Shown one piece after another: positions 1-19,578 of a DNA stretch of 19,578 nt. The DNA comes from a virus. The position numbers and the translations under genes are program-made. The stretch lies in UHGV virus genome UHGV-0149711; one strand, 5' to 3'. Numbering within the stretch: the stretch's first letter is position 1; each line of letters starts with the position of its first letter. The notes under the pieces were generated by a model, which ran no database searches, had not been told where the DNA came from, and was given only the letters and a program-made list of their open reading frames with translations.

Positions 1-161
1 TGGTATTGCTTACGCCAGAGAAATAACTGGCTGGCTGCTACACCATGTTGCCGGGCAACGAGGGAGACCGTCATCCCTGGTTCAAAGCTCTGCTGAACAA
101 TTGCGATCTTTTCCTGTGTGGTACGCCGTCTGCGTTTCTCCGGTCCTAAGACATCAATCAT
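1..161 (-). CDS. insC: IS2 transposase OrfA (InsC), N-terminal fragment; 3' end lies outside the window
   Basis: ATG at 161..159 on the minus strand. My translation: [53 protein letters not shown]..., which matches the IS2 InsC N-terminus as recalled. It is not in the ORF track because it is partial. Confidence 0.85.
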
Positions 162-252
162 CTGCTCTCCAATGACTAGTCTAAAAACTAGTATTAAGAC
201 TATCACTTAAATAAGTGATATTGGTTGTCTGGTGATTCAGGGGGCCAGTCTA
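1..252 (-). mobile_element. IS2 insertion sequence, left end (partial; continues beyond window start)
   Basis: The reverse complement of 170-252 reads TAGACTGGCCCCCTGAATC...CAATATCACTTA(T)TTAAGTGATAGTCTTAATACTAGTTTTTAGACTAGTCATTGGAGAGCAGATGATTGATGTC, which matches the IS2 left terminal inverted repeat and orfA leader as I recall them. The element boundary is at 252/253. Confidence 0.88.
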
Positions 253-2029
253 CCGGGGTTTTTACCTTCAGTGTTTCATCCGATGTGCTTATTGTGCCCG
301 TGGCAGCATACACAACAGACCATCTATGTGATGTATATCCTAATACAGTCGTATTGTCTGCATCAGGCATGAATCCATTGTACCCGCCAATCTTAAAGTC
401 GCCGCTTGGGTTTCCTGGTGACAATTTACCGTCATAACTCGATAATGTTACCCCCTTTGTACCAGTAGTCGTAGTGAGCAGGATACCTGAATTAGTGGCA
501 CCAAGAATCTGTATTTCACTATTATCGTTGCGTAAGTCCTGAACAGGAGCCTCTAGTACAGATGAGGTAATTTTCCATTTTGTGTCAGAATAAAGCTCGG
601 CCGGAGATGAGTCGTCAGGCTGAATAATAAGCGCCCCTTTACCACTAGAACGCCTACGGCATCCAGTAACGTTTTTCTGGTCTGGGTCCATATTTGAGCT
701 AACAAGAACCCCGTCAAACTGGGATATGCTTTCATAACTGTTAGCACCTTGACGCTGTGCGTTCTCAGTTAGATACACCCATGACCAGTCAAAGTGGTTT
801 TCATAGGTTTTCACATTAAAATCAATCTGATACGGACGAGTACACAACTCGCCAAAAAATCCACGGAAGTGTATATTACCTGCCACTGATGTATCACTGT
901 TCACCGTCTTAACAATACGCACTGCGCATGGCACGTCTGCAGGCCAAGTACCTAGAGTGATATTCTCAGCGTGACCACCAAATACGCGCAAAGTGTCGGT
1001 AGACTCAATCCAAAAGCTACAATTTCCCGTAGCATGATGAGGGTTATATATATGGATGCGCGTATTATTATTATCGCCACTGACGCTGCGTTCAAAATAA
1101 AACCCGCAGTCTACACGCTCAAAGTTAGGGTTCATAATTGAGTGGTAGTATGAGCCGCTGTTTTCACCTGATACTGTTGGTCCCGGCTTGAATTTCAGTC
1201 CGACTTTTACTCCCCTTGCGCGTGGATTCTCCATTACACAAAATTGCTGTGACACACGCATGGTGACCTGAGATTCGTCTTCAGGAGCAATGGCGTAGGC
1301 AATAACGTCAGAGTAGTTATCTGGGTTAATTACTACAGGATTGATTATGTGGCAGAAATCATGGCTCATTCTTAAACATGTAATTCCCGAGTCTCCTGCT
1401 ACGATTGTTGTACCAGTAAAATCAATATACCGTGTAGATGTAACATCCTGTGTATACGAGCCATCGAACTTCATTACAAGACTTTGTGTTATGCGATATC
1501 TCGCACCTACTCTCCCTGTTAATTTACCAAAAGGTATTCCTTCGAGCCATGCTAATGCTGATAACATAGATGTGGTGTCGTCAACAATCCCATCACCAAT
1601 TGCCCCAAACTCTTCAAATGTTTTAATGGCTGTCGCCCGATGCGCTATCTGATCAATTGTTGAGCCATATTTTGTTAGACTCTGCCTTAGCTGATCAGGA
1701 TCATACTTCAGCACGTTTGGAAAATAGAACTGCTGTGCACCATACGCATCATAAACAGCCATAGAATGACCTTGCACCGTAACAAACTTGGCAATCTGTC
1801 CGTTATATACAGGGTAACCAGCAGAATTGATAATGATTGGTTGCGAAACAGGAATGTGAGATCCGTCTTCGTTCTCTACATAAACCTGAATCTGGTTTTC
1901 AGGATTTACCGGGTCAGTATCAATTTTACCGATATAAATTTTGCCATTGGCTACGGCTTTAAAAGAACGCGCCATAGTGAAGAGTTGCGAAGGCATACTC
2001 ACTACAACATTGGCTGTAATGTCTGTCAT
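203..2029 (-). CDS. Tailspike protein (P22 gp9-type N-terminal head-binding domain, divergent receptor-binding domain); 3' end truncated and fused to IS2
   Basis: The N-terminus [17 protein letters not shown]...[20 protein letters not shown]...[14 protein letters not shown]...NVLKYDPDQ is the conserved P22-family tailspike head-binding domain. SD (AGGAG) lies 8 nt upstream of the ATG at 2029. Native coding stops at about 254; residues [16 protein letters not shown] and the stop are encoded by the IS2 terminal repeat. Confidence 0.88.
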
Positions 2030-2193
2030 TTAATTTGCTCCTGACGTAGCAACGCCGAACAAGATGCAACTTGCCCGACATTGCATTAATGTAAGTTATG
2101 ATTTGTTAACTATGAGATGAGTCTATGCAAAAAGATCTGTTGAATATTGCGTTCTACATATTTGGTTTTTGCACGTTCCTGGTGTTTGCGAAG

Positions 2194-4587
2194 CTATTCT
2201 GACAACGCATCAGACTTAGCCCCCTGAGTCAGGGCGTTAATGGCCTTTTGTGCCTGCTGCATGGCTTTCTCGAACGCTGTTGATCCGCGTGGGGTATTTG
2301 CCATTCGGAGCATTGCATTTCTGAATGGTTCGCTCTCATAGGCGCGAGTAAGAAGTCCGTAGCTTACTGCTGCGCCAGTTGTCGCCGGGTTCATTGCCGT
2401 CCCATATCCGATAATGAACGGGATGGTTTGCTGCCCTGTTGGTGTTGTTACTGCCGCTTTTGCAGCCTGTTGCGTTGATTGCAGGTAGCTTTTCAATCCT
2501 TTCAGATAAGCAGCATCCTGACCTTTAAATGTGATGCCAGTCTGGTTTTGCAGGATGTTAAGCTGTCGAATGAACTGGTCAGGGGAACCACCTGATTTCT
2601 CCATCGCCTTTCCAATGATGCCATTGCGCATTTGCGCCCTACCAACACGACCAACTGAGTTATACAGAGTCTTAATTTCCGATTTGTTCTTGCTGAATAG
2701 CATGTTGTTGACAACTTCCGGCGTCAAGTCGCCTTTCATGAGAACATTCTTCAGCCTGGTATTCTTTAGTTTCGCCGCTTCGTCAGCGTAGACGGCATTG
2801 GCCTGCTGATATTTACGGAGAGTATCGTTGCCAAGATTCTGACCAATGGCACCATTGATATCGTCTGTCATCGCCTTGTAAACGCGCTGAATGGCAGCAT
2901 CGGAACGGTTTGGTAACACTGGTCGCTCACCCTTCACGTCCATTCTGAACTGGCTGCGCAGGTCGCTTAATTGCTTCAAATCCAGATTTACCGGACCATC
3001 AGGGCCAGCATTGCGAACAAGCTCATCACGATATGACTGAAGTTTTGAAATAGTCTCGTTATCAGCGACCTTACCAAGCTTCTGCAGGTTAGATATTTCT
3101 GTATCAATCTGCTGAATTGCTCGTGCAGGCTGAATGTTTACTCCTGCCATAGCATTCTGAACCTGCTCCAGTCGATTACCTGCAGCACGACGAATTCCTG
3201 ATGTTTTCGCTTTAAGGCTGTCAATAACAACAGCTGGATCATACTCACCGAATTTATCAGCAAATCTCTGCACCAACTGGCTTCTCGCTTCCTGTTGCGT
3301 TGCTCTCATTCCGCTTGTGCCGGCCAGGGGGATATTTTCCGCTGTCGTCTGCGCCATTTTCCCGACGCGGGAAGTAGGCTGTAACAGGTCTGTGGTGTGC
3401 AGAGGAACTCCTTCACGCTCTGCAAATCTGATAGCCTGCTGCGCTTCTGGCGCAATAGCACCACGAACGCCACGATAAGCAGCACCTAATCCACGTCCGG
3501 CAGCGTTAATAGCACCGCCAGCCAGCACACCAACGCCTAAATCGGTGGCGAGTGCTTCCGCATCATCTTTCGCACTATTTGCAGCAAGTGATCCAACTGC
3601 GTTTTCAGCGAGAAGACGAGTTGCCCCCTGAGCAATTCGCCCAGCAAGTGTTGGTGCCTGTGCTGCCGCTCTCTCAACGCCAGCAGGAGTGAGGTAAGGC
3701 AATGCTTCAGCAAATACCCTTCCCTCTGTCGTTTGTGGAGTCAGCGCGCCTTGCTGAAGGCCAAAGTCCTGCTCTAATCCCTGCGTTGTTACTCGTGGCG
3801 CTGGTTGATATGTACCATCGCCAATGCCGAGTTTACCGCCAGCCCAAGCCGCCGCGCTTGTTACAGCATCAGTGAGTTCAGCAGGTATGTTCGCTACGTT
3901 GATTCCTGCCTGTAGTAAGCCGCGCCCGGTTTCAGCAAGTCCATTACCAAGGTCAGACATTATTCCGCCTTGTTGCTGAACAGGTTTCGGTGCGACAGAA
4001 CTTACGGGTTGAGGTGGCTGCTGACTGGCTGCCTGCTGCTCAATCTGAGCAAATGGATTATTTGGGTCTGACTGCACACCTGATGCCGATACTTGTTCGG
4101 ATGACTGTACTTCCAGTTGTGCAAACGGGTTGTTAGGGTCTTGCTGAGGATGTACCTTTGCAGAGGTGGCGCGCTGTTCGACTGTTGAGTCTGTCACCGG
4201 GTCACCCGCCCATTGAGCAAAGCGATCATCAACGTAACCGCGGCCTTCAGGTCCTGGCGTATATTCACCACGCTTTGCCTTCATAACGTTGCCGGGACCG
4301 TCGTGATAAGCCTGAAGAGCGTCACGCCAGTTACCAAACTGCTGGTACATCTTTGCCAGATAGCGCGCGCCAGCGTCAGCCTGATATTCGGGGTTTTGCA
4401 TTTGCTCATCGGTATAACCCATATCACGCCATGTCCCAGGCATGACCTGAGTCAATCCTACAGCCCCGGCGGAGCTTACTGCGGCAGGGTTGTAAGAAGA
4501 CTCCTTGGCACCCAGTGCAGTCATCAACCCTTCTGGCACACCGTAACGTGCGCCAGCCTGCTCTAACAAATCACGGTAATTAGCCAT
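2194..4587 (-). CDS. Ejection (injection) protein, gp16-position, with N-terminal family-1 lytic transglycosylase (SLT) domain
   Basis: 797 aa. The N-terminal motifs GAKESSYNP...AGAVGLTQVMPGTW...Y are a canonical SLT signature. It starts at a TAAATG junction with the upstream ejection protein gene and is the last gene before the tailspike, as in P22 gene order. Confidence 0.85.
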   Translation of the reverse strand: MANYRDLLEQAGARYGVPEGLMTALGAKESSYNPAAVSSAGAVGLTQVMPGTWRDMGYTDEQMQNPEYQADAGARYLAKMYQQFGNWRDALQAYHDGPGNVMKAKRGEYTPGPEGRGYVDDRFAQWAGDPVTDSTVEQRATSAKVHPQQDPNNPFAQLEVQSSEQVSASGVQSDPNNPFAQIEQQAASQQPPQPVSSVAPKPVQQQGGIMSDLGNGLAETGRGLLQAGINVANIPAELTDAVTSAAAWAGGKLGIGDGTYQPAPRVTTQGLEQDFGLQQGALTPQTTEGRVFAEALPYLTPAGVERAAAQAPTLAGRIAQGATRLLAENAVGSLAANSAKDDAEALATDLGVGVLAGGAINAAGRGLGAAYRGVRGAIAPEAQQAIRFAEREGVPLHTTDLLQPTSRVGKMAQTTAENIPLAGTSGMRATQQEARSQLVQRFADKFGEYDPAVVIDSLKAKTSGIRRAAGNRLEQVQNAMAGVNIQPARAIQQIDTEISNLQKLGKVADNETISKLQSYRDELVRNAGPDGPVNLDLKQLSDLRSQFRMDVKGERPVLPNRSDAAIQRVYKAMTDDINGAIGQNLGNDTLRKYQQANAVYADEAAKLKNTRLKNVLMKGDLTPEVVNNMLFSKNKSEIKTLYNSVGRVGRAQMRNGIIGKAMEKSGGSPDQFIRQLNILQNQTGITFKGQDAAYLKGLKSYLQSTQQAAKAAVTTPTGQQTIPFIIGYGTAMNPATTGAAVSYGLLTRAYESEPFRNAMLRMANTPRGSTAFEKAMQQAQKAINALTQGAKSDALSE

Positions 4588-5919
4588 TTACTGCCCCAAA
4601 GATGGAAGATATCCGTAGCGATTAATGAAGTCGATTGACAGCTCGGGGTGCTGCTTCAGGTAATCTATAGAAGCCTGAGGCGCTTCCACTCGCTTGATAC
4701 CGTTTTGCTGAACGTACTTACCAACCGCCTCATTACGCTTCTGGTTGAGCGTGTTCAGGATGACGCCAGCGTTGCGACGAAAGGACTCCTCGCTCTGCGA
4801 GTTCTGCAGCGAACCAACAGCCTGGTCGAGCTTTTTGCCCTCGGCATCAGAAAGTGCGCCCATGCCTCGCATGGCCTGAACCGCTGTCAGGTATGCTTGT
4901 GATTTAAAGGTATCAAGTCGTGCCTGAGTGTCTGCAGCCTGTGAGCCTGGAACGTTGGGGATTACTCCACGTAAGCCTGTAATGCTCTTAAGTGAAGGAG
5001 AACTAACGATATCGTTCAGAGTGAACATGCTGGTTGTGAGGGTGTTGATGCCGTCTTTGTAGCCATCATTTAGCGCTTGCTGCTTCTGCTGCAACTGCTG
5101 GTTGTTGGCTGCTATGCGGCTCTGTATTTCCTGGCGCTTCAGGTCGTTAGTTTCTGCTGATAGCATCCGGTCAAGGCGCTTATTTTCGTTGTTAATGCGG
5201 TTTGTTTCTGCGTCCAGATTAATGCGCTGCTGACCTAAATTCGCCTGGATATCTTGTCCGCGCATTGTGATTGCCTGATTCCGAGCGGCGGTTTGCGAAT
5301 CCAGATCCTGACCGCGCATGGTAACCTGGCGACCCTGCATTTTATCCTGTAGGTCAAAGTATTTTTCGGGCCCGAGACTGTTCATCCCCAGGTGATCGAC
5401 AAATTCGCCGAACTGCCGCGGGTTCTGTTGGTACATCTGAGCGACGTCATGAGGATTAACGCCAACACGAGCTAACTCACCGGCGTTGTTTTGCAGCCAT
5501 GATTGCATTGCTTCTGGAGAAGATGACGCAAGACGTGCGCCAGCCGCTAATGTACCGATAGAATTACGCTGGTCTTCATCAATGAATCCCATGCCTTTAC
5601 GAACGGATTCAATCTGGTCTGGATATTGAGTAGCCAACTGACGCAAAGCACCGCGATCACCAGAAGCATAAGCATTAGCGTATGCCTGCTGAAATTCTTT
5701 CTGCCGCTGAGCCTGCTTTTCCTGCTGAAACACCCCTGCAATACCTGAAAGACCTTGCAAAGCAGTCAGCCCAACATTGTTAGCGCCTGAACGCTCAATA
5801 TCATTGTTCTGCCTGATAAGCTGAAGCGTATTGCCGATGTCATTTACGCTCGGAGCGTTTGAGTTGACGCCGCCGATACCAGCTAACAATCCGCCATTTG
5901 ATCCTTGCCAAGTAGCCAT
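4588..5919 (-). CDS. Ejection protein, P22 gp20-like
   Basis: 443 aa, Gln/Ala-rich with internal repeats (TMRGQD x2). It sits between the gp7-like and gp16-position genes, with its stop directly abutting the next start. Confidence 0.78.
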   Translation of the reverse strand: MATWQGSNGGLLAGIGGVNSNAPSVNDIGNTLQLIRQNNDIERSGANNVGLTALQGLSGIAGVFQQEKQAQRQKEFQQAYANAYASGDRGALRQLATQYPDQIESVRKGMGFIDEDQRNSIGTLAAGARLASSSPEAMQSWLQNNAGELARVGVNPHDVAQMYQQNPRQFGEFVDHLGMNSLGPEKYFDLQDKMQGRQVTMRGQDLDSQTAARNQAITMRGQDIQANLGQQRINLDAETNRINNENKRLDRMLSAETNDLKRQEIQSRIAANNQQLQQKQQALNDGYKDGINTLTTSMFTLNDIVSSPSLKSITGLRGVIPNVPGSQAADTQARLDTFKSQAYLTAVQAMRGMGALSDAEGKKLDQAVGSLQNSQSEESFRRNAGVILNTLNQKRNEAVGKYVQQNGIKRVEAPQASIDYLKQHPELSIDFINRYGYLPSLGQ

Positions 5920-5928
5920 GATTACCCC

Positions 5929-6621
5929 TTAAAACAACGAGCCAAGCAATCCGATACCAGCACCAATGCCAGCGCCCCAAGGTGTTGATGTTCCCAAAAG
6001 GCTGGCAAGACCTGCACCGGCAATCGCACCAGATGTTCCGCCACTAATTGCAGTCTGAAGACTTGATGGTTTATTGGCATTAGCAGCGGCAAGAGCTGCG
6101 CTTTGCTGTGCAATGCTGCTCATGTTGTTGGCGTATGTCTGCCCGGCGTTTGCCTGACCTTGCAGCGCACCAAGCCCAACGTTTGCCAGATTGTTGTAAT
6201 TGCTCATCTGATTTGATAACCAAGACTGACCGAGTGTCGGCGCGATCGTAGCCAGTTGATTGCTTGTGGCTGTCGAACCAAGTCCACCCGTCGCCTCCGC
6301 AGCAGCAAGACTCTGGTAACGCGCCTGCCCTGCAAGGTCTTTATACTGCTGAGAGTTGTAATACTGATTAAGTGCCTGCCCCTGACCTTCTAAACTGGAA
6401 AGGTTCTGAAGCTGGTTAACATACTGCTCCGCAAGAGGCGTGAACGGAGCAAGGTTTTTCATGATCGTCTGCCACTGCTGATTTTGCAGATCTGCAGCAT
6501 ACTTCTGAGCTTCTGCTGCATACTTTGCGCTTTTATCAGAACTGCCACCTTTCCCGCCTTTTTCAGGGCAATAAGGTTCCTCGCCGCGCAGCTTTCTGCC
6601 CAGCTTAAATGCATATAACAT
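5929..6621 (-). CDS. Ejection protein, P22 gp7-like
   Basis: 230 aa. The N-terminus MLYAFKLGRKLRGEEPYCPEKGGKGGSSDKSAKYAAEA matches P22 gp7 as recalled, with a Gly/Ala-rich C-terminus. Position is conserved. Confidence 0.88.
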   Translation of the reverse strand: MLYAFKLGRKLRGEEPYCPEKGGKGGSSDKSAKYAAEAQKYAADLQNQQWQTIMKNLAPFTPLAEQYVNQLQNLSSLEGQGQALNQYYNSQQYKDLAGQARYQSLAAAEATGGLGSTATSNQLATIAPTLGQSWLSNQMSNYNNLANVGLGALQGQANAGQTYANNMSSIAQQSAALAAANANKPSSLQTAISGGTSGAIAGAGLASLLGTSTPWGAGIGAGIGLLGSLF

Positions 6622-6623
6622 GG

Positions 6624-7079
6624 CTATCTCCCGTGATTCAGGAAGTCGATTAGTTCTTCGCGTGTGGCGCTGTAAAAAGTCACGTCATCCACGCCCTTGA
6701 AGTATTTCTTGATGGTTCCGACACGCTTAAGGCCAATCATTGCGCAGTACATCTGCCCGTGGCGGAATTTGCGTGCAGCGAACGATGTGACGCACTGAAC
6801 GGTGGTGTTAGTCAGAATGTATCGCCAGAACGCCAGCCCGATCTCCTTGCTGAATCCACGAACCTCTGGCAGGTACATGGCGTGGCAATCGAATGTCAGC
6901 GGCTGAATCTCCTGATAGTAAACAATGCCGCCGAACTGCCCGTGCACGTTCACCTCAAAGTAACGGCATTCAGGTTTGTAGTCGTATCCATCACCGTTGT
7001 TGCTCCCGGCGATAATGTCAGGGTGATTTCCTACGGCTTCTATCAGGTCGATGTTTCGCGTTGGTTTGAATGTAATCAT
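6624..7079 (-). CDS. P22 gp14-position protein
   Basis: 151 aa ORF between the needle gene and the gp7-like gene, translationally coupled (1-nt overlap with the upstream gene). Assigned by synteny; I cannot recall the P22 gp14 sequence to compare. Confidence 0.65.
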   Translation of the reverse strand: MITFKPTRNIDLIEAVGNHPDIIAGSNNGDGYDYKPECRYFEVNVHGQFGGIVYYQEIQPLTFDCHAMYLPEVRGFSKEIGLAFWRYILTNTTVQCVTSFAARKFRHGQMYCAMIGLKRVGTIKKYFKGVDDVTFYSATREELIDFLNHGR

Positions 7080-7780
7080 CAGTCAATAAGCCCATGTAAT
7101 CTAAGTGCCGTTTCAAGCGCCAGAATACGCTGCCGCGCCTGCTGCAAACCTGTAGCGAGTGCTGCGACTTCGGATTGTGTGTACGTAGTGCCGACTGTGT
7201 ATGACTGGTTAGCGTTGAATGAGCCAAGAAGAGGTGTACCTGTGGCTGCAGTCCATCCGGTATTTCTTGCTCCAATAACCTGAATTCCATCAACTGAATA
7301 TGATGTTTTTACATCCAGCGGTGACGCAAGAGACTGCGATTCGGTTACGGTTTTCGATACGTAATCACTCTTAATGTCAGATACATCGCTTTCTATGCCA
7401 TCCAGTCTTTGGTCAACAGTGACCAGATGCGCCTGAATAGCGATAACCTCATCCAGCAAGTAATCAACATCGCTACGCAGTACGACTATCTTCCCTTCGG
7501 CGGTTGTTAACCTGACCTCAAGGAGATTTATCGCTTTTGTGTTTGCGGTGATTCTTGCATCGTGGTCAGCCAGTTCGACATCCTGTTCATCGTTTTTCAC
7601 CTGAGCATCGTAAGCGCCCTGTCCGGCCTCGTTGGCCTTGTTAGCCACGTTACCAACATCAGTACCCTGTGCGATAACGTAAAGCAGGTAAGACTGGCTG
7701 AATATATTGCGTGGAAGGATTGATGTATCGAGCCGCGTCGCCTGCACAATAACAGGGGTGTTGAGATTCGAATCAGCCAT
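7079..7780 (-). CDS. Tail needle protein (P22 gp26-like)
   Basis: 233 aa. [43 protein letters not shown]...[24 protein letters not shown]... and the C-terminal ...LRLHGLID match P22 gp26 as recalled. Confidence 0.92.
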
Positions 7781-9198
7781 TACTCAATCCTTATCTGGCA
7801 GCCTGACAGAGTGACAGGTGACTTCGTGATAACGCGCAATTTGAAGCCGACATTTTTCCTGATGCGCCCGACTCGCTTCCACAAAACGCGTTTGTCGTAA
7901 ACGAACGGTTCATTCTGTTCAATCATCTGCTCACGTCCGTAATTTATGCCGTCAGTGGTTGCAGAGAGGAACAGGCTGTCGGCGTACTGAGCAACGCCAG
8001 TTGAAGATTCAACTTCAAGGTCGAAAACTCTGGCGTTATCCGCTTTGAACAGAGGAGTAAACAGCAGGTGTTCCTGTTGCTTGTCGTACTGGCTGCTGAT
8101 ATCGAACTGCAGTTTCCCGGTAACAGATTCCAGCTTATCGCCGCACGTTATCTGATTGCCTTCGTAAATGAAGTCGATAGCGCGGTACACATCGTCATAC
8201 AGGCCTGTTTTCAACACACACCATTGCGGACCATTGGCGCTTGAAGATGCGTCGTACACCAGAACATGGCGCGGAAGATGGATAATCAGCAGCTCATGCG
8301 CATCAAATCGCAGAGACTCCATCACGCCATCAGCCAGTTCATCAGCAGTGTAGGAGCGTAGTATTTTCTCAATGCTCGCGCTGGCGATTGGTGATACCTG
8401 ACCGGAGCCGATGATGTACACAGACGGCGCACCTGTTGCCGGATTGCTGATGAACGCATAAGAATCAGCGAATGGCGTTTTGCAGTAAGTCCCGGCGATG
8501 CCTTTTTGCACCATCAGTGATGGCTGTGCGACATACAAAGCAGCACCAACGGTAGTTGATCCTGTCAGGGAAAAATATTCAATCGTCGATGAACCAAAGC
8601 AGACGATGAAGTCTCGCCATGTCCCGATACCGATGATACCGTCAGGCTGAGACTCGGCACGATATTGTGCGCTGTATCGGTCAGGATGTGATTCGTCTTC
8701 AAGGTCAGTGATAAACCATGAATCAGTGCCGTCTTTTGACCACGCATAACGCCCACGTAAGCGTGTAATGTCGCGGACTGAACCTAACTCATACTGCGTG
8801 AATCCGCTGTCTGTAGGCCAGTTTGAGACGGTTTTAACCGTACCATCATAGCGATACTCGACCAGTTGACCATTAACGCCTACAGCCTGTGATGTCCGAC
8901 CATGTGCCATTGATACGCGACCACTTCCGGCAACGTCACCGACTTCACTTTCGCCTTTGTAGAGCTTGCCACCACACACGCGATAAACAGCATTCTGCGC
9001 CATGTTGTACTCGACACCGCGCGATACACCATTCACATCAGAGCGTTTGGCAATGCCCGGGAATGAGCGAAGATATCCGCTGCTGTTGAGGATTTCTTTG
9101 GGTGTAGCCAGCATATTCACTGGCAGATAGTCGATATAGTCGGCGTTTCGAAAGTCTTTGCCGACACCTTTCATAAGCGGAAGTTGCTGAATCGGCAT
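7780..9198 (-). CDS. Tail accessory/hub protein (P22 gp10-like)
   Basis: 472 aa, the same length as P22 gp10, in the conserved position between gp4 and gp26, with 1-nt overlaps on both sides. Confidence 0.88.
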
Positions 9199-9698
9199 TA
9201 TTCGCTCCCGTTATCGCAAGGTTCCTTTCGGTGGAAGTAATTCCAACCGTTCCACTTCGCCAACTGATTACCGCTACCAACAGGCATACGGTTTGGATAA
9301 CCGGACTTACATTTAGCGGCTTTTGCTCTGTCCATTGCAGACAGTTTGACGAGTCGCTCTTTCCCGTATCTGGCAGTGGTTATAAGTTTTGCAGAGGCTT
9401 CCAGCGCATAATCTGGAGCAATGCGGCATGCAAGGTTGAAAATGACGGCATTGATAGCGTTATTTGATAAACCGTGCTCATCGCCAGGATCCGGAGCGAC
9501 ATCTGCATCAGCAAAAATGTAGCCAACGTTGATCCCAGGTGACGCATCACCGCCAAGCCATTCAGCCATCATCATTTCAAGGTCGTTGACGCTGTCTTCC
9601 ATAGACTGCGGTTCGACATCGGTTAACGTGGCATTTGATGCAACACCGAGCTTACGTAATGCTGCAAGGACTAAATCACCCTTCGTTGTCAGGTTCAT
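9198..9698 (-). CDS. Head-tail adaptor / tail accessory protein (P22 gp4-like)
   Basis: 166 aa. ...[42 protein letters not shown]...HGL...[14 protein letters not shown]... matches P22 gp4 as recalled. Confidence 0.9.
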
Positions 9699-9906
9699 CT
9701 GCTGCCGCCTTAGGTTTTCGACCAGGCTTTTTACGCTGTTTTTCTTCTAGCTCTGGCTCTGCAACATCCTTCAAAAGGTCATCAGGATGTGAAAACCAGC
9801 CAGCATCCAGATATTCCTGAAGCTCTTCGGCTTTCACGATTTCAAAGTCGTATCCAACGCCTTTCCATTCCTTCATGTCTCCATGACGAAAGATCATGTG
9901 TGTCAT
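9676..9906 (-). CDS. Small acidic hypothetical protein between the coat and gp4 genes
   Basis: The track ORF 9676..10086 overlaps the coat gene; I trimmed it to the internal ATG at 9906, which has a GGAGA SD 5-6 nt upstream and lies just after the coat-gene terminator hairpin. 76 aa: [38 protein letters not shown]... Confidence 0.5.
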
Positions 9907-9919
9907 GCTTGTCTCCAGA

Positions 9920-9942
9920 TAAAAAGGGAGCCGAAGCTCCCT
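9920..9942 (-). terminator. Putative rho-independent terminator/attenuator immediately downstream of the coat gene
   Basis: The minus strand reads AGGGAGC-TTCG-GCTCCCT followed by TTTTTATCTGG: a perfect 7-bp GC-rich stem, a TTCG tetraloop and a T-run, starting about 8 nt after the coat stop codon. Confidence 0.6.
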
Positions 9943-9949
9943 CTGGTTA

Positions 9950-11245
9950 TCACGCGGTCTGATTAGGCAGACCAACACCAATTGCCTCTGGTCGTACAGC
10001 ACATGCTGAATACCACACAGCAATACGGCACTTACCAGACAGAGTGTTGATATCACCCTGCGTTGCGAAGATGCCGTTAACACCAATGCCAGGAATGCTG
10101 AAGGAAGAAGTTTTCATGCCAGCAAACAGTTCATGGGTTACCGGGATAGGCTGAGACAGCAGTCGGATTGAGTCATCAGCCCAGAACACGTTAGCGGTGG
10201 TTGTTGCCACGTTCAGAACATTTACCGGAGTGGCATCAGCAAGAGAGGTGTTTACGTTAGCGTAAGCCTTCTCTTCTTTTGTCAGTGACGCGTCATCCAG
10301 TGCAATCGGCTTCGGCGTGATTTCGATGTGAGTACTATCGATCACACGGGTGATTGAGAAAGTCGCATCATCAGTCAGCAAGTTCTTCGCCATCTGAGAC
10401 AGGAATTTCACACCAGTGAAGCTGATTTTGTCGCCGCGCTTAAACCCGGTGGTGGAGGATACGGTCACCGTTGCAACACGGTTGTCGACGTTCTCTTTGT
10501 TACCATCGGTATCAAGGGTGTATGCCTGCGGCTTAAACTTCTGCGCACCAGAAACAGTTACACCAGTAGCGGTTGACTTGGTAACTGCCGGAAGTTTCGG
10601 TGAGCGAAGAATTTCATCAAAGCCAGCAATCTGACGCTGAATAGTACCGTTGCGATACGCGTCTTCAGTAACGCGCCCGAAGATGTCACCATCTACCAGG
10701 TCGCGGCCTGCTTTGCGGTAATCGTCAGGGTTCAGGAAGTAACTGATGCCCATATCGCGGTTTAGCTCACGGGAGAACATCAGGCGCTCTGCATCAGACA
10801 CAAAATCCCAGCCAGACAGGCCAGTAGATGGACCAATTGCGCGGGTATCGTGAACAACAAGTGAGCCCATTTCGGTTGCCTGTTTGGCAATTGCTGACTC
10901 AATGTTATTCGCCAGTTTTTTGGCGGATGCCTGGATGCGGCGACGGTAAGAACGCTCATCACGCAGGTCATCTGCACGAAGCTCGAAGAAATCGTTATCC
11001 GGATCGCCCATGTTGCATTTCACGGACAGCTCCAGAATCCCGGTTGCGTTGCCAGTTAAATCCCAGCCAGTCTGAGTTGGCGCTTCCTGCTCAACAGGCA
11101 TCCACACGGTGTTGCTTGAACGTTGCATGGATTCTGCCGGAGGGGTGTATTTTGTCACTTTGGACGCCATTGGCGTCAGGTTCTGGACGGTTTCGATGAT
11201 TTCATCCAGAGCATACGTGACCAGTTGACCTTCATTTAATGCCAT
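9950..11245 (-). CDS. Major capsid (coat) protein, P22 gp5-like
   Basis: 431 aa. MALNEGQ...[25 protein letters not shown]...RQIAGFD..LRSPKLP..TKSTATG.TVSGAQ.FKP...[35 protein letters not shown]...[13 protein letters not shown] matches P22 coat protein along its whole length as recalled. Confidence 0.97.
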
Positions 11246-12156
11246 TATCGAATTCCTTTATTCAGTTGCGCCTTGAGCTTGCGGTATGTCTCTACATCCC
11301 CTTTGTTTGCTGCCGCTTCCATCTGCTTTTCAATCGCAGAGATATTTGCAGCAACAGCGTGTCCCTGAATGGGTTCATCAGGTAACGGGGCTTCTGAAAC
11401 AGGCTTGGCTCGAGGCTTGAGAGTTAAACGTTCTGACAGTCGAGTGAGTTCAATCAGCGCGGATTGCCCGTCCATCGCCAGCAACTGGCGTGTTTTCTCA
11501 GGATTAGCACCAAGGTGATACATGAGAGCAGCGGATTTCTCCGGGAAGAGGCGCATGATGTCGGCACCGACTGCTGGCGGCACCAGTTGCATGAATGCAT
11601 CCTCTTTCTCCTGATAGTCAGGGATATTGAGCTTTTCCGCTGCATCGTAGTGCTTACGGGCGGCCTCGACGTATTGCGCTGATTGCTGGGTGAACTCCTG
11701 AGTTTTGCGGCCCTGCTCGGCGACAGCCTGGCTTCGTGCGTCCATAGCCTTGATCTGCCATTCACTGTTTGCCTGCTGGAAGGCCGCCAGTGCGCGGCTC
11801 TGGTCATAGTCGTACTTAGCCAGTGCGTCTTCGGAAAGATAATCGTTAGGGTCTGGTTGTTTTGGTAACTCAGGGTTCACCCGCAGGTGCTCCGGCAATT
11901 CTCCACGCTTAACCGCTTCCATCTGCTGCTCAAGCTCACGCTGGCGTTTGCGTTCGATGCGGCGACGGGCAAATTCAGCATTAGTTGCCGGGTCTTGTTT
12001 TGGTTTCTCATCGTCTTTCAGGACAATCTCGAAGCCTTCTTCCTGACCTGCGTTGTCGTTGGCATTATCGACAACTAAGCCATCAGCAGATGCCGCTGCA
12101 TGATTGCCGGGCAGGGTTAATTCTTCAGAAGCCTGAATGTCGGTGGTTTGGTCCAT
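11245..12156 (-). CDS. Scaffolding protein (P22 gp8-like)
   Basis: 303 aa (the same length as P22 gp8), highly charged and helical in character, located between portal and coat, with a 1-nt overlap with the coat start. Confidence 0.9.
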
Positions 12157-12169
12157 GATTAACTCTCTC

Positions 12170-14335
12170 TTATTGAGGTGTCTCGGCTACTCCGCCGGAG
12201 GGGATTTGAACTTGACGCATAAGATTCGCGAAATCCATGCGTTGTGAATGAGTCTGGTCTGCATCTTTAAGAAGCAGCTCAGCGTTAGCACGAGCATCTT
12301 TGCTGCGCTGTTGCTGGAATTGACCTACGAGCTTGAGGTACTCACGCAGTTCTGCCTGCTTGTCGAGGTCCATATTGTTGAAGATTTCTGCAATCTTCGC
12401 GGCGTTGAGTTGGTTTTGAGCTTCAACCTTGGCAGCTTCAACCTGAATCTGCGCCTGTTGGTTCTCTGCCTTGAGCAATTCAGCCTGACCTTGCAGAAGG
12501 ATACCCTGCGCCTGAATTTGCTCTGCTGATGGCTGCTGCGGCTGCTGTTGCGCCTGTTGTACCATCTCCATCTCTTCAGGTGTTTCTGGTTTCTTCAGCC
12601 CCATCATCACCAGTTGCTTGTTCGCGTACTCTCGCATCATCTCGACGCCTTTACCGTCAAGCAGCGTGAAGTATTGCAGCATCAGCATCTGGAACTCTGG
12701 AGTACCTTGCGGAACCTTGGTGAGTAACTCCTGAATCTCTGCGCGGTTCTGTTCCTTCATACTCTGGAAGGATGGTCCAACGTCCGTATAACACTCATAG
12801 CGACCACGAATGTCGTTGAGTGTGACCACATTGCCGGACTGGTAATCTACAACTTGCGCGTAGAGTTGAACGTCTTTCTCGCTTCCGTCTTCAAGAGTCA
12901 GCGTTACATGGCGAGGAACGTCATAAATATCGTTGACCATTGAGGCATAAATCTCGCCATCACGTCGCATTGCGGTAGCCAGGTTATCCTGAAACACGTA
13001 TGTCTCAAGGTCTGCCCGCATGTTCAGTTGATTGACGGTATCGAAAGCGACCTGACCATTTGCCGCCTGCGCATCCACGCCAAGACTAGCCACCTCTTTC
13101 ACTGCGTTGGTGGCTGCCTCAAGCATGTAAGCGTTGGCTTGCGGCACTTCAGGGTTTTCCATGTAGGAGATTGGACCAATCGGCAGGTCGTTACCGTTTT
13201 CATCGGTCCTGTTCTGCAGATAGTACGGATAGTCATCATTTCCACCGTACATGTATTCGTAGCCTTCGATTTGCTCAGGGAAGAAGGTCGGTTTCTTCTT
13301 CGGTGAACGAGCAACAATATCGGCGTTGAACGACATGATCATGTTACGAAGGCGTTGACCGTCTTTCGTCAGCCTTACCACTCCTTCATAGCACTCCTTG
13401 TCACCAGCGAATGACCATTCACCATACACTGGAACGATTGGAATATGCTCTCCGGCTATCTTCTCGCGGTCTTTCAGTATCTGCGTACAGGTGATGATCG
13501 ACTTATACACACGCCGACGCTTCACCTTGCGCTCTGCTACCTTAATGAATCCACGATTAGCCAGGTCGTCGATGACGTCTTTGATATCCTGCTGGTAATA
13601 GCTTACCGGCTCACCTGTCAGCGGGTCGCGGTAGATGAAGACTTTCTCTTTCTTCTCTTCGACCTCGTAATACTCAGCGACGTAGACGACATCATTCGAT
13701 ACCCACGGAAACAGCCATGTATCGTTCGGATTCTGGAAAGATGGCAAGGTGTCCGGATCAATACCGTAATCCTCTGCGAACTCTTTCCAGCCATTGCGCG
13801 ACAAGGCGTTAATCACCGTGCAGTGCTTAGCGTCGCTCTTATCCATCTGCTTGCTGTTGGCGTCCCATATGACGTGTGAGCAGGCTTCATGGATTGGCAG
13901 GCGTCTGATTACCTGGTTGTTGCTTGTTGGATCGTTGTCTTCGTACTGTGTGACCAGACGCCATGCACCAACGCCGGACTCTATCTGCTCACGAACGCCA
14001 ACGTTAACGGCAATTTTTGCCGTGTTATGGCGCATATCGGTACGATACATTCCCATCAACACATCGGCAGCATCAGGATTAGCTCCGTCTTTTGGTCTGA
14101 AGAGAACGTCGATAGGGTTACGGCGCATCTCTGCGACCAGCTTCCTGACCACCGGGCGAACAACATCGAATTGTCCGCGATATTGCAGGGTAGTGTAGTT
14201 TGATAGCCAGTCATCCCATTGCGACACTCGGCTAAAATACAGGTCATTTGTCGCCTCGGTTCTGGCTTCATCGCTCGCCATCCAGTCCGCGTCAAACTTA
14301 CACAGAATGGAATTGAGTCTGTTTTCGTCGGCCAT
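12170..14335 (-). CDS. Portal protein (P22 gp1-like)
   Basis: 721 aa. The N-terminus [66 protein letters not shown]... and the C-terminal Gln-rich barrel segment match P22 portal as recalled. Confidence 0.97.
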
Positions 14336-15835
14336 TTAAGTTCTCCGTGCGATGGGCCTGATTGGGGCTGGTATCTTTTTCTCTTTTGGTTTTTTGATGT
14401 CGCGCATCATTTTGGCGAAGCGGCGCATCATGTATGCATAGCGAACGGCGGATAGCACGTCGTCGTTAAGCTTGACGATCTTCCCGTTTTCATCACGGTG
14501 ATAGAGGCGGAACTCCTCAAAGAATGGCTCACAGGTGTTGAATACTTTGAAGCGACCATCAAGCATCATGTCGCGCAATTCAGTGATTCCAGGCTCCACA
14601 GCGTTACCGCCATCAGGCCATGTCGCATGCTCCTGCAACATCATAAAACCAGCGTCCGCGTACTGCCCTTTGAGCTGCTCACCGCCGCCCTTCTCATGCT
14701 GGTTTCCGTCATGAGGCCATGCGGTTGGCACTTTATGCGCCCATGATTTAACAGCTCCCCATGCCTGAACAGCTGTTTTTTCTTTCGCCTTCCACACGCG
14801 TGAAACGTAGATTGTGTCTGCGTCCTTATCCCACCAAAGCTGAACCTGCGCCTGTGGGTGATCCCATCCAAAATCCATCCCACCAATTACGTAGAAGTGA
14901 TCAGGACACTCGAACGGCTGACACTTAATAGTCTCTTCCGGTATCTGGAAGATTCGACCGCTACCCATCGTAGGAATACCGCGAGCACGCGCCTCTCTCT
15001 CATGCTCGGGATAGGATGCGATGATTTGCTCTTTCTGCTCGTCGGTGTAGTGCTCAGCGTCATAGATGGTCATGTTGACCACTTTCTGCGACTTGCTGGG
15101 ATTCTTCAGGAACTTGGTAACAACGTCAGACATCCCCATCAGCGGGGTAAACGTCAGAATTGAGAATTGCCCGTATTTGTTGGTACGGGTAAGGCCTTCG
15201 CCATAAATGCTGTATGGTGGCTCTTCGTCAAACCACACGCCGTGGATTGTGTCACCCTGCCAGCGAGCGCGGCCTTGCGAGTATGGTTTGAAGTAGCAGA
15301 TTGAAATGCCATCTTCAACGCCATCAGCCGTGTGATGCTTAACCAGAAGATGATCAACAAGGTTCGGAAAGAAAGGAGACTTCTTCCAGCTAATGATGTC
15401 TTCTTTAGGTATGGAACCGTAGCCTGGCTCATCATTCTCTTCGATACGACCACACAGGATGCGTTGAGTCGTTTTGGTTACAGTCTCGTTTGTCTCGCCG
15501 CCAATCCAGAAGACAACAGGCTCATAGAAACGCTTACCTTTCCACTCCCCACCATATTTACCATCAGCCGGATAGCCTTTTGTTCCCGGATAACGCCCGG
15601 TAAGGTGAAACGCGACTTCAGCAGCCCCAGTAAATGACTTACCAAGCTGGTTCCCAGCCATAAAACAGCGCTCTGGATAGTCATGCCCGGCGTCGATGAA
15701 CTCACGCTGTTTGCTGTATGGCGTAAATTCATATAGCAGGTGTGTGTTCCGGTAGTTCTCTTCTTCTTCGAGTAGCTCGAGCAACTCGATTTGCTCTTCG
15801 TCGCTCAGGTTATCAAGAATCGCGTCCAGTTCCAC
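14336..15835 (-). CDS. Terminase large subunit (P22 gp2-like)
   Basis: 499 aa. [37 protein letters not shown]...GNQLGKS (Walker A)... is near-identical to P22 gp2 as recalled. Its start overlaps the 3' end of the small-terminase gene. Confidence 0.97.
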
Positions 15836-16301
15836 GGTTGAATAGCTCCTTGATACGAGAGCGTCGCTTATCGCGATCTCCCTTATCAGGTGTCACGTCT
15901 TCAACTTGCGACTGCTCTTTGAGGCCCAAATCACGGGCGATGATGTTAGCGTTGAGAAGGTCAGCGGCAGCGCCAGAGAATTTCTGGTCGTAGATGATGT
16001 CTTCCGCTCGTGATGTGACGTCAGAAAAACCTTCCATTGACCGGAAGGTTCCCCATGTTTGCCTGGTGATATCAAGGAAGGTACACAATCCTGAAATAGT
16101 CATGGCTCGCATCTTAGGGACATTAGCCTTAATTATTTCTCCCTGATATGAAAATACCTTACCCTCCCATAGCGGGTTATCATCAGCCCACTCGAAGTAT
16201 TCACAACAAGCAGCCCACAGCGCCTCAGGCGATTCGAATTTAGGATTTCGCCCATGACTACTGCGGGCCTCCCAAAATCGGTTGCCCTTTGGTGCTGCCA
16301 T
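15813..16301 (-). CDS. Terminase small subunit (P22 gp3-like)
   Basis: 162 aa. [38 protein letters not shown]...[59 protein letters not shown] matches P22 gp3 as recalled, with a divergent central segment. SD AAGGGA upstream. Confidence 0.95.
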
Positions 16302-16306
16302 ATTGA

Positions 16307-16396
16307 TTATTTCCCTTCTGCTTGCTTATCCCATTCATCGCGGAATTTGGATGGGTTGTCGAAGCCCTGAGAGCCTGAACAAACTTTGATTACCAT
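16307..16396 (-). CDS. Putative 29-codon micro-ORF immediately upstream of the small terminase gene
   Basis: ATG at 16396..16394 overlaps the stop of the upstream Cys-rich ORF (TAATG). SD AAGGAG is 7 nt upstream. It encodes [29 protein letters not shown] and its stop is 5 nt before the gp3 ATG. Not in the ORF track (below its length cutoff). Confidence 0.25.
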
Positions 16397-16590
16397 TACT
16401 TAGCTCCTTTCTGCTTGCCTGTGTTTGATGTCGTTTCAGCAGCAGCCCCAGAGCAATTAACGCTACCCGCAACACCATATCCATAACCAGTCTTGAAGAA
16501 ATTATTGCCAGTAAATTGGTTAACAATCTTCCCGCAGCACGGGCAGCGTTGGCATTGGCAATAAGGGGATTGATTATTCCAGTGATACAT
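16396..16590 (-). CDS. Small Cys-rich / Gly-rich hypothetical protein (64 aa)
   Basis: I trimmed the track ORF 16396..16665 to the ATG at 16590, which has a strong SD (AGGAGA, 6-nt spacer). Product: MYHWNNQSPYCQCQRCPCCGKIVNQFTGNNFFKTGYGYGVAGSVNCSGAAAETTSNTGKQKGAK. It has no transmembrane segment and carries a CxCxxCxCC cluster. Confidence 0.4.
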   Translation of the reverse strand: MYHWNNQSPYCQCQRCPCCGKIVNQFTGNNFFKTGYGYGVAGSVNCSGAAAETTSNTGKQKGAK

Positions 16591-16963
16591 CTTGTTTCTC
16601 CTGAATGAATGGCAGGAAGTGATTAACCATCCTGTCCAGCATGTAACAGTACGTCTCGTTGGCATCTTCAGGCCTTGTCGTCACGCCGACATCAGAGCAA
16701 ACGTAAAAGCAGACGTGGGCGCACTCATGAACGAGCGTAGCGATCTGCTGATCGAATACTCCAATCAGATAGCATCGCTCACCCGTATCAGTGTTTTCAT
16801 AGTTGCTTGCAAACCCAAGATTGAATGGCTTCTCATCCCCGCTGCCGCCAAGGAATTTATCAGCGTGCTGAAACTGTTCTCTGGTTGTTGCGAGGTAGAC
16901 ATGTGCACTTTGAAACAGCGGAATGGTGAACGCCGGGAGTTTGTGCCATTTGGCCTTAGCCAT
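16574..16963 (-). CDS. Putative zinc metallopeptidase (HExxH motif), family unassigned
   Basis: 129 aa with HECAH at residues 79-83 (nt 16715..16729), preceded by hydrophobic residues (IATLVHECAHV) as in SprT-like or ImmA/DUF955-type peptidases. SD GGAG is 8 nt upstream. Its ATG is 1 nt after the stop of the upstream 80-aa ORF. Confidence 0.55.
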   Translation of the reverse strand: MAKAKWHKLPAFTIPLFQSAHVYLATTREQFQHADKFLGGSGDEKPFNLGFASNYENTDTGERCYLIGVFDQQIATLVHECAHVCFYVCSDVGVTTRPEDANETYCYMLDRMVNHFLPFIQEKQDVSLE

Positions 16964-16964
16964 A

Positions 16965-17207
16965 TCACACTCCGGTGGTGAACAGGTCTAACGCTTCCTT
17001 CGATTTACGCACCGCTTCGATAGTTCGGGTCGTGATATCTGAATTAGCGCCACCTGACTGGAAGTGAATTTTGAATAGCTCAAGCTTCAGCTCGTCAGTG
17101 CCAATGAATTGAAATGCTTCTTCTGCGGCTGCGTTCTGGTTCATGACCAGTTTGTAAATCTCTAACTGGAATTTCTGTTCTTCAGTCATGGGAATAATCT
17201 CTGCCAT
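16965..17207 (-). CDS. Hypothetical small protein (80 aa), first gene of the small-ORF string upstream of the terminase
   Basis: MAEIIPMTEEQKFQLEIYKLVMNQNAAAEEAFQFIGTDELKLELFKIHFQ... SD GGAG is 7 nt upstream. It is tightly coupled to the downstream HExxH ORF. Its size and position recall the small ORF I remember upstream of P22 gene 3, but I cannot verify this. Confidence 0.5.
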   Translation of the reverse strand: MAEIIPMTEEQKFQLEIYKLVMNQNAAAEEAFQFIGTDELKLELFKIHFQSGGANSDITTRTIEAVRKSKEALDLFTTGV

Positions 17208-17463
17208 TGTTGGCTCCGTTTATCCGTTAAAAGGGATATCAGTTAAGTTATCCCGTGTAGGGTATAAGCCATTGTCGAGACCACTCATTGAATGGCCTCT
17301 GCAATAACCGATGTCTTTCCATCAGTCCGCCACCACAAAGAATCTTTTTTGCCATAAGGCTGGAGGTTCATCTTTCAGTGGCTGCCAGTGTTATTTCCCC
17401 ACTTACTGGCTTGGGTTGTTTCGCGGTACTGCCGTAATGCAAAAACTGGATTAACCTGCGAAA

Positions 17464-17994
17464 TCACACCATTCCGGGCAAATACATTTGCACTTCATTT
17501 GCCGCTCTCTCACGTGCAACATGAAGCAATCTTTTTCGCCCACCAACGCCCCACTTAGCCATTTGGTTTGCGCACTGGCTTATCGCTTTGGTTTCAGTAT
17601 TGATGATGTGATCGATTCTATTCAGACGGGACATTGCGCCAACGCCGAGACGGACAACCGTTTTGAAAACTTCATAAACTTCGATTTCAAATTCCGGCTT
17701 AATCCATGCTGCATATCTGATTGCCAGAAGTTCAACACCCCACACACCTGGTTCTGCACCACCTTTGATTGTTTTAAGTGGTTGAATTTGTTCCAAAGTG
17801 CTTTTTTGCACTTTGGCCTCCAGTGCTTTTATGAAGCGTTTTATCTGCGCGCTACGCAAAAACTGGCTTGGGCGCTGTTGCTCTGTAGCCTCTCCATTTG
17901 CAACTGCTGCTGCATGGAGATCGTTTAAGTTGTAGCGTCCATCCTCATCAACACGAACGGACACACCATTGACAATAACTGTTGGGTACTTCAT
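17464..17994 (-). CDS. KilA-N domain-like protein (putative DNA-binding/regulatory accessory gene)
   Basis: 176 aa. The N-terminal pattern TVIVNGVSVRVDEDGRYNLNDLHAAAVANG fits the KilA-N/APSES-type signature (I..R.D.DGRY.LNDLH.A.G). It is flanked by non-coding DNA on both sides (17208-17463 and 17995-18339). Confidence 0.55.
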   Translation of the reverse strand: MKYPTVIVNGVSVRVDEDGRYNLNDLHAAAVANGEATEQQRPSQFLRSAQIKRFIKALEAKVQKSTLEQIQPLKTIKGGAEPGVWGVELLAIRYAAWIKPEFEIEVYEVFKTVVRLGVGAMSRLNRIDHIINTETKAISQCANQMAKWGVGGRKRLLHVARERAANEVQMYLPGMV

Positions 17995-18140
17995 CAGTGA
18001 TTACCTTTTAGTGATGAACCTTGTCACACAGGATTCCGGCCCACAGAAAGGCACCGATCACCAAACCGGCATCCTCAAGGGTCATCCTGAAAGGTTCTGT
18101 GTTCAGAAGTCGCGCGTGTGAAGCGCGTTTGTTGCAGATA

Positions 18141-18165
18141 TAAAAAAGCCCCGCGAATGCGAGGC
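18141..18165 (-). terminator. Putative rho-independent terminator downstream of Rz
   Basis: The minus strand reads GCCTCGC-ATTC-GCGGGGC followed by TTTTTTAT: a 7-bp GC-rich stem with one G.U pair and a U-run. A second GC hairpin (CGCGC-N7-GCGCG, 18111-18127) is adjacent. Confidence 0.55.
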
Positions 18166-18339
18166 TAAATCCTGGTGTTTGTGATGACTGGCTCTTATCT
18201 CAACGCAGCCCCTTACCGCGCGCCATATGCTCAATATCAAGCATCAGCAATGAGATGTTTAATCTGGATTCACTCCAGAAGTGATCACCACCCTGTCTAC
18301 AGAGCCAGATGTGAAGGATGATGAGTAAAATTATCGCTA

Positions 18340-18777
18340 TCATCGAAGGCATTGCGTCCTGATGTATTCCTGCAGGTAGTTAACCTGCGCGGTTATCTTG
18401 TCGATTCCACTTCGGAGACGGTAATAATTGAGTTCAGCATCTGCTGTAAGTCTTGGGCTTTCTCCATCGCCCATGCCGCTGGCTCCGGTCGTTGACTTTG
18501 CACAGGTGGCGGCGACTTGCAGGCGCTTACGACCAGCAGAAACATCAGCACGGAGACTTTCGATAGTAGCGTTAGCATCAGCAAGCTCCTTTGTGTATCT
18601 GGCGTCGAGTTCTGCTACGTCACGTTGACGCTTCTGCATGTCAGCGATTGTGGATGCGGCCTTATCTCGCTGCTCTTTGTAGGCGATGGCGTTATCACGG
18701 TAATGATTAACAGCCCATGACAGGCAGACGATGATGCAGATAATCAGAGCGGGGATAATCGCGGTTACTCTGCTCAT
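18340..18777 (-). CDS. Rz: Rz i-spanin (inner-membrane spanin subunit)
   Basis: 145 aa. [37 protein letters not shown] matches the lambda Rz N-terminus (N-terminal TM, coiled-coil periplasmic domain). The C-terminal half is divergent. It overlaps the R stop. Confidence 0.92.
18393..18584 (-). CDS. Rz1: Rz1 o-spanin (outer-membrane lipoprotein) embedded in Rz in the +1 frame
   Basis: 63-aa ORF lying wholly inside Rz. It has a signal peptide ending in a lipobox (VVSA-C) and a Pro-rich mature region ([14 protein letters not shown]...), which is the classic lambda Rz/Rz1 architecture. Confidence 0.8.
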
Positions 18778-19250
18778 ACCTCAATCTCTCTGACCGTTCC
18801 GCCCGCTTCTTTGAATTTTGCAATCAGGCTGTCAGCCTTATGCTCGAACTGACCATAACCAGCGCCCGGCAGTGAAGCCCAGATATTGCTGCAACGGTCG
18901 ATAGCCTGACGAATATCACCGCGATCAATCATCGGTAAAGCGCCACGCTCTTTAATCTGCTGCAATGCAACAGCATCCTGGCTTTTAGGAGAGAAGTCTT
19001 TCAGGCCAAGCTGCTTACGATAGGCATCCCACCAACGGGAAAGAAGCTGGTAACGTCCGGCTGCTGTTGATTTGAGTTTGGGGTTTAGCGTGACAAGTTT
19101 GCGAGGGTGATCGGAGTAATCAGTGAATAGCCCTCCTCCTACAATGACGTCATAACCATGATTTCTGGTTTTCTGACGTCCGTTATCAGTTCCCTCTGAC
19201 CACGCCAGCATATCGAGGAACGCCTTACGTTGATTATTGATTTCCACCAT
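18774..19250 (-). CDS. R: Endolysin, lambda R-type lytic transglycosylase
   Basis: 158 aa. [154 protein letters not shown] is essentially lambda R as recalled. Confidence 0.96.
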
Positions 19251-19557
19251 CTTCTACTCCGGCTTTTTTAGCAGCGAAGCGTTTGATAAGCGAACCTATC
19301 GAGTCAGTACCGATGTAGCCGATGAACACGCTCGTTATATAAGCGAGATTGCTACTTAGTCCGGCGAAGTCGAGAAGGTCACGAATGAACCAGGCGATAA
19401 TGGCGCACATCGTTGCGTCGATTACTGTTTTTGTAAACGCACCGCCATTATATCTGCCGCGAAGGTACGCCATTGCAAACGCAAGGATTGCCCCGATGCC
19501 TTGTTCCTTTGCCGCGAGAATGGCGGCCAACAGGTCATGTTTTTCTGGCATCTTCAT
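19234..19557 (-). CDS. S: Class I holin, lambda S-type (S107/S105 dual-start)
   Basis: 107 aa. [103 protein letters not shown] is near-identical to lambda S as recalled. The Met1-Lys2-Met3 dual-start motif is present, and the gene overlaps the R start as in lambda. Confidence 0.96.
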
Positions 19558-19578
19558 GTCTTACCCCCAATAAGGGGA

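Follow-up and report, generated by a model that had tools for sequence, protein, structure and literature searches.

IS2 interrupts the tailspike gene of a P22-like Escherichia coli prophage and very probably disables the spike by removing its C-terminal chaperone domain

The tailspike gene of a P22-like E. coli prophage is joined, 10 codons into the region for its predicted C-terminal chaperone domain, to the left end of the insertion sequence IS2. We consider it very likely that the whole of this arrangement is explained by entry of IS2 into codon 593 of a 701-codon P22-like tailspike gene, with loss of the chaperone and a nonfunctional spike as the outcome. The window, by which we mean the whole stretch of DNA analyzed, is 19,578 bp long and constitutes an entire metagenome contig (ENA ERZ1743987 NODE_1055, about 6x coverage); it begins, therefore, where the assembly broke within a repeat and not at a biological end, and, because the contig breaks within IS2, the visible part of the element amounts to just 252 bp. 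In the mechanism that we propose, a 1,331-bp IS2 would have transposed into codon 593 of the tailspike gene of a P22-like (Lederbergvirus-type) E. coli prophage. The native protein would consist of a head-binding domain, a β-helix receptor-binding/depolymerase body, a trimeric stalk, and a 119-residue chaperone domain that is predicted to drive folding of the trimer and then to cut itself off at Ser583. The insertion would swap the last 109 residues of the chaperone domain for 16 residues encoded by IS2, the truncated chains would fail to register and trimerize and would be lost to aggregation or degradation, and the induced prophage would package its DNA into otherwise normal particles that, without functional spikes, would not adsorb. 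The prophage would then be passed on vertically as a "grounded" element. The features of the region are listed here by window coordinates and strand.

1 to 252, minus strand: left end of IS2 (IS3 family); 252 of 252 bases as in complete 1,331-bp IS2 copies
3 to 161, minus strand: first 53 codons of IS2 orfA (HTH transposase N terminus), cut at the contig end; a called gene with a match to PF01527 (HTH_Tnp_1)
203 to 252, minus strand: IS2-encoded tail of 16 residues, Val first, and stop codon
203 to 2,029, minus strand: chimeric tailspike ORF of 608 codons (592 phage, 16 IS2-encoded), then a TAA stop
253 to 257, no strand: candidate target-site duplication, the 5 bp adjoining IS2, CCGGG on the plus strand; compare the 5-bp duplications of IS2 in E. 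coli NCTC86 (TGCCT) and VTB97022v (GACAT)
253 to 1,690, minus strand: receptor-binding part (β-helix core and trimeric stalk) plus the first 10 chaperone-domain residues, residues 114 to 592
266 to 283, minus strand: putative Ser/Lys self-cleavage motif S583-D-E-T-L-K588, kept; aligned with TSDARLK of 7y5s and with the S1264A site of T5 pb1 (4uw8)
1,691 to 2,029, minus strand: P22-type head-binding domain, residues 1 to 113; PF09008 with E = 7e-67 and PDB matches to the Sf6 and P22 N-terminal domains

Read from position 252 to position 1, the window matched complete copies of an IS2 variant with 100% identity (252 of 252 bases), and matches were present in thousands of E. coli records. The minus strand of this segment opens with TAGACTGGCCCCCTGAATCACC..., and the terminal base of IS2, in the left inverted repeat (TAGACTGGCCCC...), is window position 252. 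The same base corresponds to the first base of the IS2 copy of E. coli NCTC86 (locus L004), which is 1,331 bp in length and is flanked by the 5-bp duplication TGCCT. The ATG of orfA at position 161 is nucleotide 92 of IS2, in agreement with the annotated NCTC86 copy, and the segment possesses both the left terminal inverted repeat and an orfA with an HTH N terminus about 90 nucleotides from the left end. An earlier note on this DNA had read the minus strand of 1 to 252 as the left end of IS2 with an orfA start at 161, and the sequence identity and the PF01527 match bear out that reading. The element has the same orientation as the tailspike gene, and the tailspike stop codon (203 to 205) lies 42 nucleotides upstream of the orfA ATG on the same strand. 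A consensus scan, which provides weak evidence, revealed no terminator between the two. Because no terminator-like site separates the stop codon from the ATG, phage late transcription probably reads through into the IS2 transposase gene on induction.

The 608-codon ORF is identified as a P22-like tailspike because its first 113 residues correspond to PF09008, and it also occupies the end of the late operon in the order gp7, gp20, gp16, tailspike. Its frame runs from 2,029 to 203 and crosses the IS2/phage junction at 252/253, as had been noted before. The claim that the last 16 residues and the stop codon are encoded by IS2 stands, apart from the detail that codon 593 (GTA, Val) is of mixed origin: its first base, window position 253, derives from the phage, and its second and third bases come from IS2. 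The chimera thus contains 592 native residues followed by 16 that are IS2-derived. The receptor-binding part (253 to 1,690) was delimited on the basis of its 99.6% nucleotide identity to E. coli NZ_OZ197100.1, and the β-helix body, represented by an AF2 model of the related protein P0007, matched the CBA120 spikes TSP3, TSP1, and TSP4 in Foldseek searches.

NZ_OZ197100.1 (locus L001) carries the uninterrupted allele, and it is the sole near-identical copy of this tailspike allele among complete E. coli genomes. Its match to the window begins exactly at position 253; aligned pairwise, the two share identical sequence from there on and are unrelated at lower positions, which sets the break between 252 and 253. 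After ...KVKTP the frame of NZ_OZ197100.1 runs on for 109 further residues (ATNESAEREAANEIRKNIIRYKF...DELIMFLAMYA*), and the native protein is therefore 701 residues long. P0007 (867 aa) has a different N-terminal adaptor and the same native C terminus, with 96% identity over the shared part. The comparison with intact tailspikes that the earlier note had called for accordingly yielded two sequences, NZ_OZ197100.1 and P0007, that both carry the native C terminus. The possibility that intact relatives end in the IS2-encoded peptide was ruled out, as P0007 ends with the native sequence. The allele of NZ_OZ197100.1 (L001 3672-6578) is itself a remnant, its 5′ part having been cut off beside an IS3 element, and the prophage around it, which lies beside intS and tRNA-Arg, is decayed. 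This remnant is an independent case of IS-mediated decay of the same tailspike allele.

A short-read assembler could conceivably have joined the IS2 end to the tailspike gene in error, and the source, a metagenome contig of low coverage (about 6x) that ends within a repeat, lends this explanation some weight. Against it, the join falls at the exact terminal nucleotide of IS2, and the same join is found in the assembly of an independent isolate as well as in other entries of ENA and UniRef, some of which show point differences. The 608-aa fusion or single-residue variants of it are encoded by the draft genome of an E. coli isolate, further ENA contigs, NCBI entries, and a UniRef entry. For the isolate (GCA_028651475.1), contig JAPTQB010000048.1 (34,430 bp) differs from the window by one SNP in 11,841 bp, and it too ends inside IS2, 64 bp in. 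Since the exact-terminus join recurs in independent assemblies, we rejected an assembly chimera, to which we assign a negligible probability. The fusion has spread with point differences, a pattern consistent with a grounded prophage that is passed on vertically. In the NCBI annotation of GCA_028651475.1 the IS2-fused 608-aa product (P0004) is named as a normal "phage tailspike protein"; the draft contigs end inside the IS, and so the truncation is invisible to routine annotation.

As judged by homology, the 109 lost residues are nearly all of a C-terminal intramolecular chaperone domain of the Peptidase_S74 type. The native domain spans 119 residues, of which the chimera keeps 10 (S583 to P592) and loses 109. 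When the C-terminal ~150 residues of the native protein were compared with the PDB by using phmmer, the following entries were matched.

7y5s, phage tail fiber: E = 1.6e-23
9vvr, tail spike: E = 2.5e-18
4uw8, T5 pb1: E = 1.7e-15
3gw6, K1F endosialidase (endoNF): E = 9.5e-11
6eu4, tail spike: E = 5.7e-10
3gud, GA-1 neck appendage (gp12): E = 9e-9

PF13884 (Peptidase_S74) scored 20.9 bits on the native allele, narrowly under the Pfam threshold of 22, and a Pfam search of the 608-aa chimera gave no PF13884 match. The Ser, Asp, and Lys of the self-cleavage motif are invariant in 31 aligned relatives, and the HFGxGAQ motif, located in the lost part of the domain, is conserved in all 31. The IS2 junction lies 10 codons past Ser583 and 4 codons downstream of the S583-K588 motif. 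Structural evidence was drawn from the AF2 model of P0007, for which the mean pLDDT was 61.5, a poor overall value that is expected because a monomer of an intertwined trimer was modeled; residues ~760 to 867 reached 85 to 91 and the β-helix body was also confident, and the confident segments alone were used, global TM-scores not being meaningful here. The C-terminal segment of the model is composed of a helix, strand, helix, strand, helix, long hairpins, and a terminal helix, and in Foldseek it matched 3gud with a TM-score of 0.65 and an rmsd of 3.4 Å, as well as 3gw6 and 4uw8. The native allele thereby combines homology to the family, the Ser...Lys dyad, and (in the P0007 model) the characteristic fold, whereas the window allele has 10 of the 119 residues left and lacks the folded domain. 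The junction after Pro592 is equivalent to P0007 residue 758, ahead of every secondary-structure element of the chaperone domain. By alignment it falls at about Arg1273 of T5 pb1, inside the first loop described for that chaperone (residues 1265-1276; PMC4690869). All 582 residues of the predicted mature spike are kept in the chimera together with the putative cleavage motif, and the elements lost, according to the model, are every helix, the "tentacle" hairpin, and the terminal coiled-coil helix of the chaperone domain.

The far side of IS2 bears on how the truncation arose. In a simple insertion, the element would be followed by a distal copy of CCCGG and then by 327 nucleotides encoding ATNESAEREAANE...FLAMYA and a stop codon, and we regard this as most likely because the independent IS2 in the tailspike gene of E. 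coli VTB97022v is a clean insertion. Alternatively, an IS2-associated deletion or recombination between two IS2 copies may have deleted the 3′ end of the tailspike gene or moved it elsewhere, perhaps together with the end of the prophage, a course of events that we view as rather unlikely while still giving it appreciable weight. It would agree with the contig stopping within IS2 and with the results of searches for the predicted distal junction (GGGGCAAATCCA, CCCGG, and CAACAAACGAGAGTGCGG in succession, with the duplication length left free), which was absent from the genome and JGI metagenome collections. That absence is uninformative, however, as the exact proximal junction is also missing from the genome collection and the JGI metagenomes (0 of 5,426 complete E. 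coli genomes). Similarly, a protein search with the missing 119-aa C terminus returned an empty result, with no separate distal fragment, but a distal fragment that lacks a usable in-frame start codon would not be called as a gene and would therefore be missing from protein databases. An approach to the distal side by way of the gene that normally lies downstream of the tailspike led to one short contig, in which the spike is intact. The IS3-truncated prophage remnant of NZ_OZ197100.1, with the same allele, demonstrates that IS-mediated deletions do occur at the tailspike locus; on the other side, the IS2 in the other P22-like tailspike gene (L008, VTB97022v) is clean, with a 5-bp duplication and a restorable ORF. 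The spike is truncated under either simple insertion or rearrangement. When the distal junction was modeled from the NCTC86 and NZ_OZ197100.1 sequences (L004 and L001), IS2 orfB was in frame with the remaining 109 codons, with only a TAG stop between them.

P22-type heads that lack spikes are non-infectious. The earlier note had judged that a tailspike truncated in this way is unlikely to fold or trimerize, and identification of the lost part as a probable chaperone domain strengthens this view by analogy to two proteins with aggregation precedents, the K1F and phi29 spikes. Both aggregate when expressed without the C-terminal domain (PMC3357383, PMC3742443), and for T5 pb1 folding has been proposed to begin at the C-terminal coiled coil of the chaperone (PMC4690869). 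Because the chaperone domain is needed for folding and trimerization in the homologous proteins, the 608-aa chimera should not form functional trimers, and we infer that the prophage is defective and non-infectious. It is improbable, in our estimation, that the truncated tailspike still functions, either by folding without the chaperone domain or through rescue by the spike or chaperone of another prophage. Residues 1 to 582 of the predicted mature spike are indeed untouched, P22 gp9-type spikes fold without a cleavable chaperone (PMC3357383), and the fusion allele persists in several assemblies. Yet removal of the domain resulted in aggregation in every tested carrier (K1F and phi29), the domain and its HFGxGAQ motif are retained in 31/31 aligned relatives, and persistence of the allele would be equally expected if a dead prophage were simply inherited vertically. 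Because the head-binding domain is highly conserved, a compatible spike could come in trans from a co-resident P22-like prophage, and the particles might therefore not always be dead. The insertion parts the mature spike from its chaperone domain with near-surgical accuracy. We give only the slimmest chance to the idea that the insertion site acts as a rare reversible switch of infectivity, operating through read-through of the orfB stop or precise excision of IS2; if it did, chaperone or spike function would be restorable and the allele would offer a natural test of the chaperone in trans.

The case for a spike disabled by IS2 can be set beside several known systems. E. coli VTB97022v (NZ_CP178670.1, L008 1922-3252) likewise carries a 1,331-bp IS2 in the same orientation in a P22-like tailspike gene, flanked by the 5-bp duplication GACAT; removal of the IS restores a 668-aa ORF, and the gene is annotated as a pseudogene in RefSeq. 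That genome has a different tailspike allele with IS2 right after the head-binding domain, whereas the element here lies 10 codons into the chaperone domain, and it includes both IS2 flanks, whereas the window shows the proximal junction alone. In NZ_AP027957.1 (L009, about 3700-5100) IS2 lies between ant and the tailspike gene of another P22-like E. coli prophage. The tailspike region may be a recurrent target of IS2. The chaperone domains (CIMCD/ICA, Peptidase_S74) of K1F endosialidase, T5 pb1, and GA-1 gp12 are homologous to that of the native tailspike, which shares their Ser/Lys dyad. Engineered C-terminal deletions of the K1F and phi29 proteins aggregate (PMC3357383), and the IS2 allele amounts to their naturally occurring counterpart; it differs in being the work of a transposon, in keeping the first 10 domain residues, Ser583 and Lys588 among them, and in adding 16 foreign residues.

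The head-binding part of the window has 90.6% nucleotide identity to that of CUS-3, a P22-like prophage of E. coli K1. The CUS-3 tailspike is an endosialidase in which a P22-type head-binding domain is combined with a receptor-binding module bearing a cleavable chaperone domain at its end. In contrast, the body encoded here is a β-helix of a kind related to Ackermannviridae spikes rather than a sialidase propeller, and the gene is interrupted. IME10 (Lederbergvirus), a free viable phage, resembles the prophage in its late operon and differs in the receptor-binding part of its tailspike. Comparison of the body-plus-chaperone module (window 255-1678) with P0007 and P0009-P0033 showed that in P0007 the same module, at 96% amino acid identity, is preceded by a PF18668 adaptor (TSP1/Gp66 type, typical of Ackermannviridae). 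The tailspike body also has 74% nucleotide identity to a tail protein of the O157:H7 phage PhaxI. These sequence relationships suggest that podovirus prophages and large lytic myoviruses have exchanged modules.

The remainder of the window contains a full P22-like late operon with holin, endolysin, spanin, small and large terminase, portal, scaffold, and coat genes as well as gp4, gp10, gp26, gp14, gp7, gp20, and a gp16 with an SLT domain. Window positions 2,030 to 19,578 have 97% nucleotide identity over 90% of their length to IME10, and the genes of the two agree in order and length. The collinearity with this viable phage upholds the previous statement that the other late genes appear intact. 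The gp16-type ejection protein (2,194 to 4,587, minus strand; 797 aa) has an N-terminal SLT domain (PF01464) fused to a P22_gp16 domain. An ORF of 176 aa that separates the lysis genes from the terminase (17,464 to 17,994, minus strand) matches positions 1 to 173 of the 273 in phrog_129 and may be a short or truncated phage transcriptional regulator. In related prophages the gene just downstream of the tailspike (L002 1252-2358; L001 2508-3311) encodes a 368-aa protein for which no Pfam match was found; a relative of 57% identity (P0128) is named O-antigen polymerase in UniRef, and serotype conversion is a possible role for the gene. The stretch with this gene is rare, being present in 5 genomes among 5,426 complete E. 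coli sequences, and the L001 copy of the gene seems to have been cut down to 267 aa.

There is ample earlier description of IS2, of P22-like tailspikes, and of the cleavable chaperone domain, and IS insertions in prophage structural genes are routine. We conclude that the insertion is a case of ordinary prophage decay, known in kind, and that its position is the one neat feature. The allele carries a warning for annotation: with contigs that break inside the IS, automated prophage-completeness tools would probably score such a prophage as intact. As a natural deletion of the chaperone domain, it could serve to test whether a P22-type spike requires this domain. Its biological weight is modest and lies in the indication that a single IS hit on the sole adsorption protein would ground an otherwise intact prophage.
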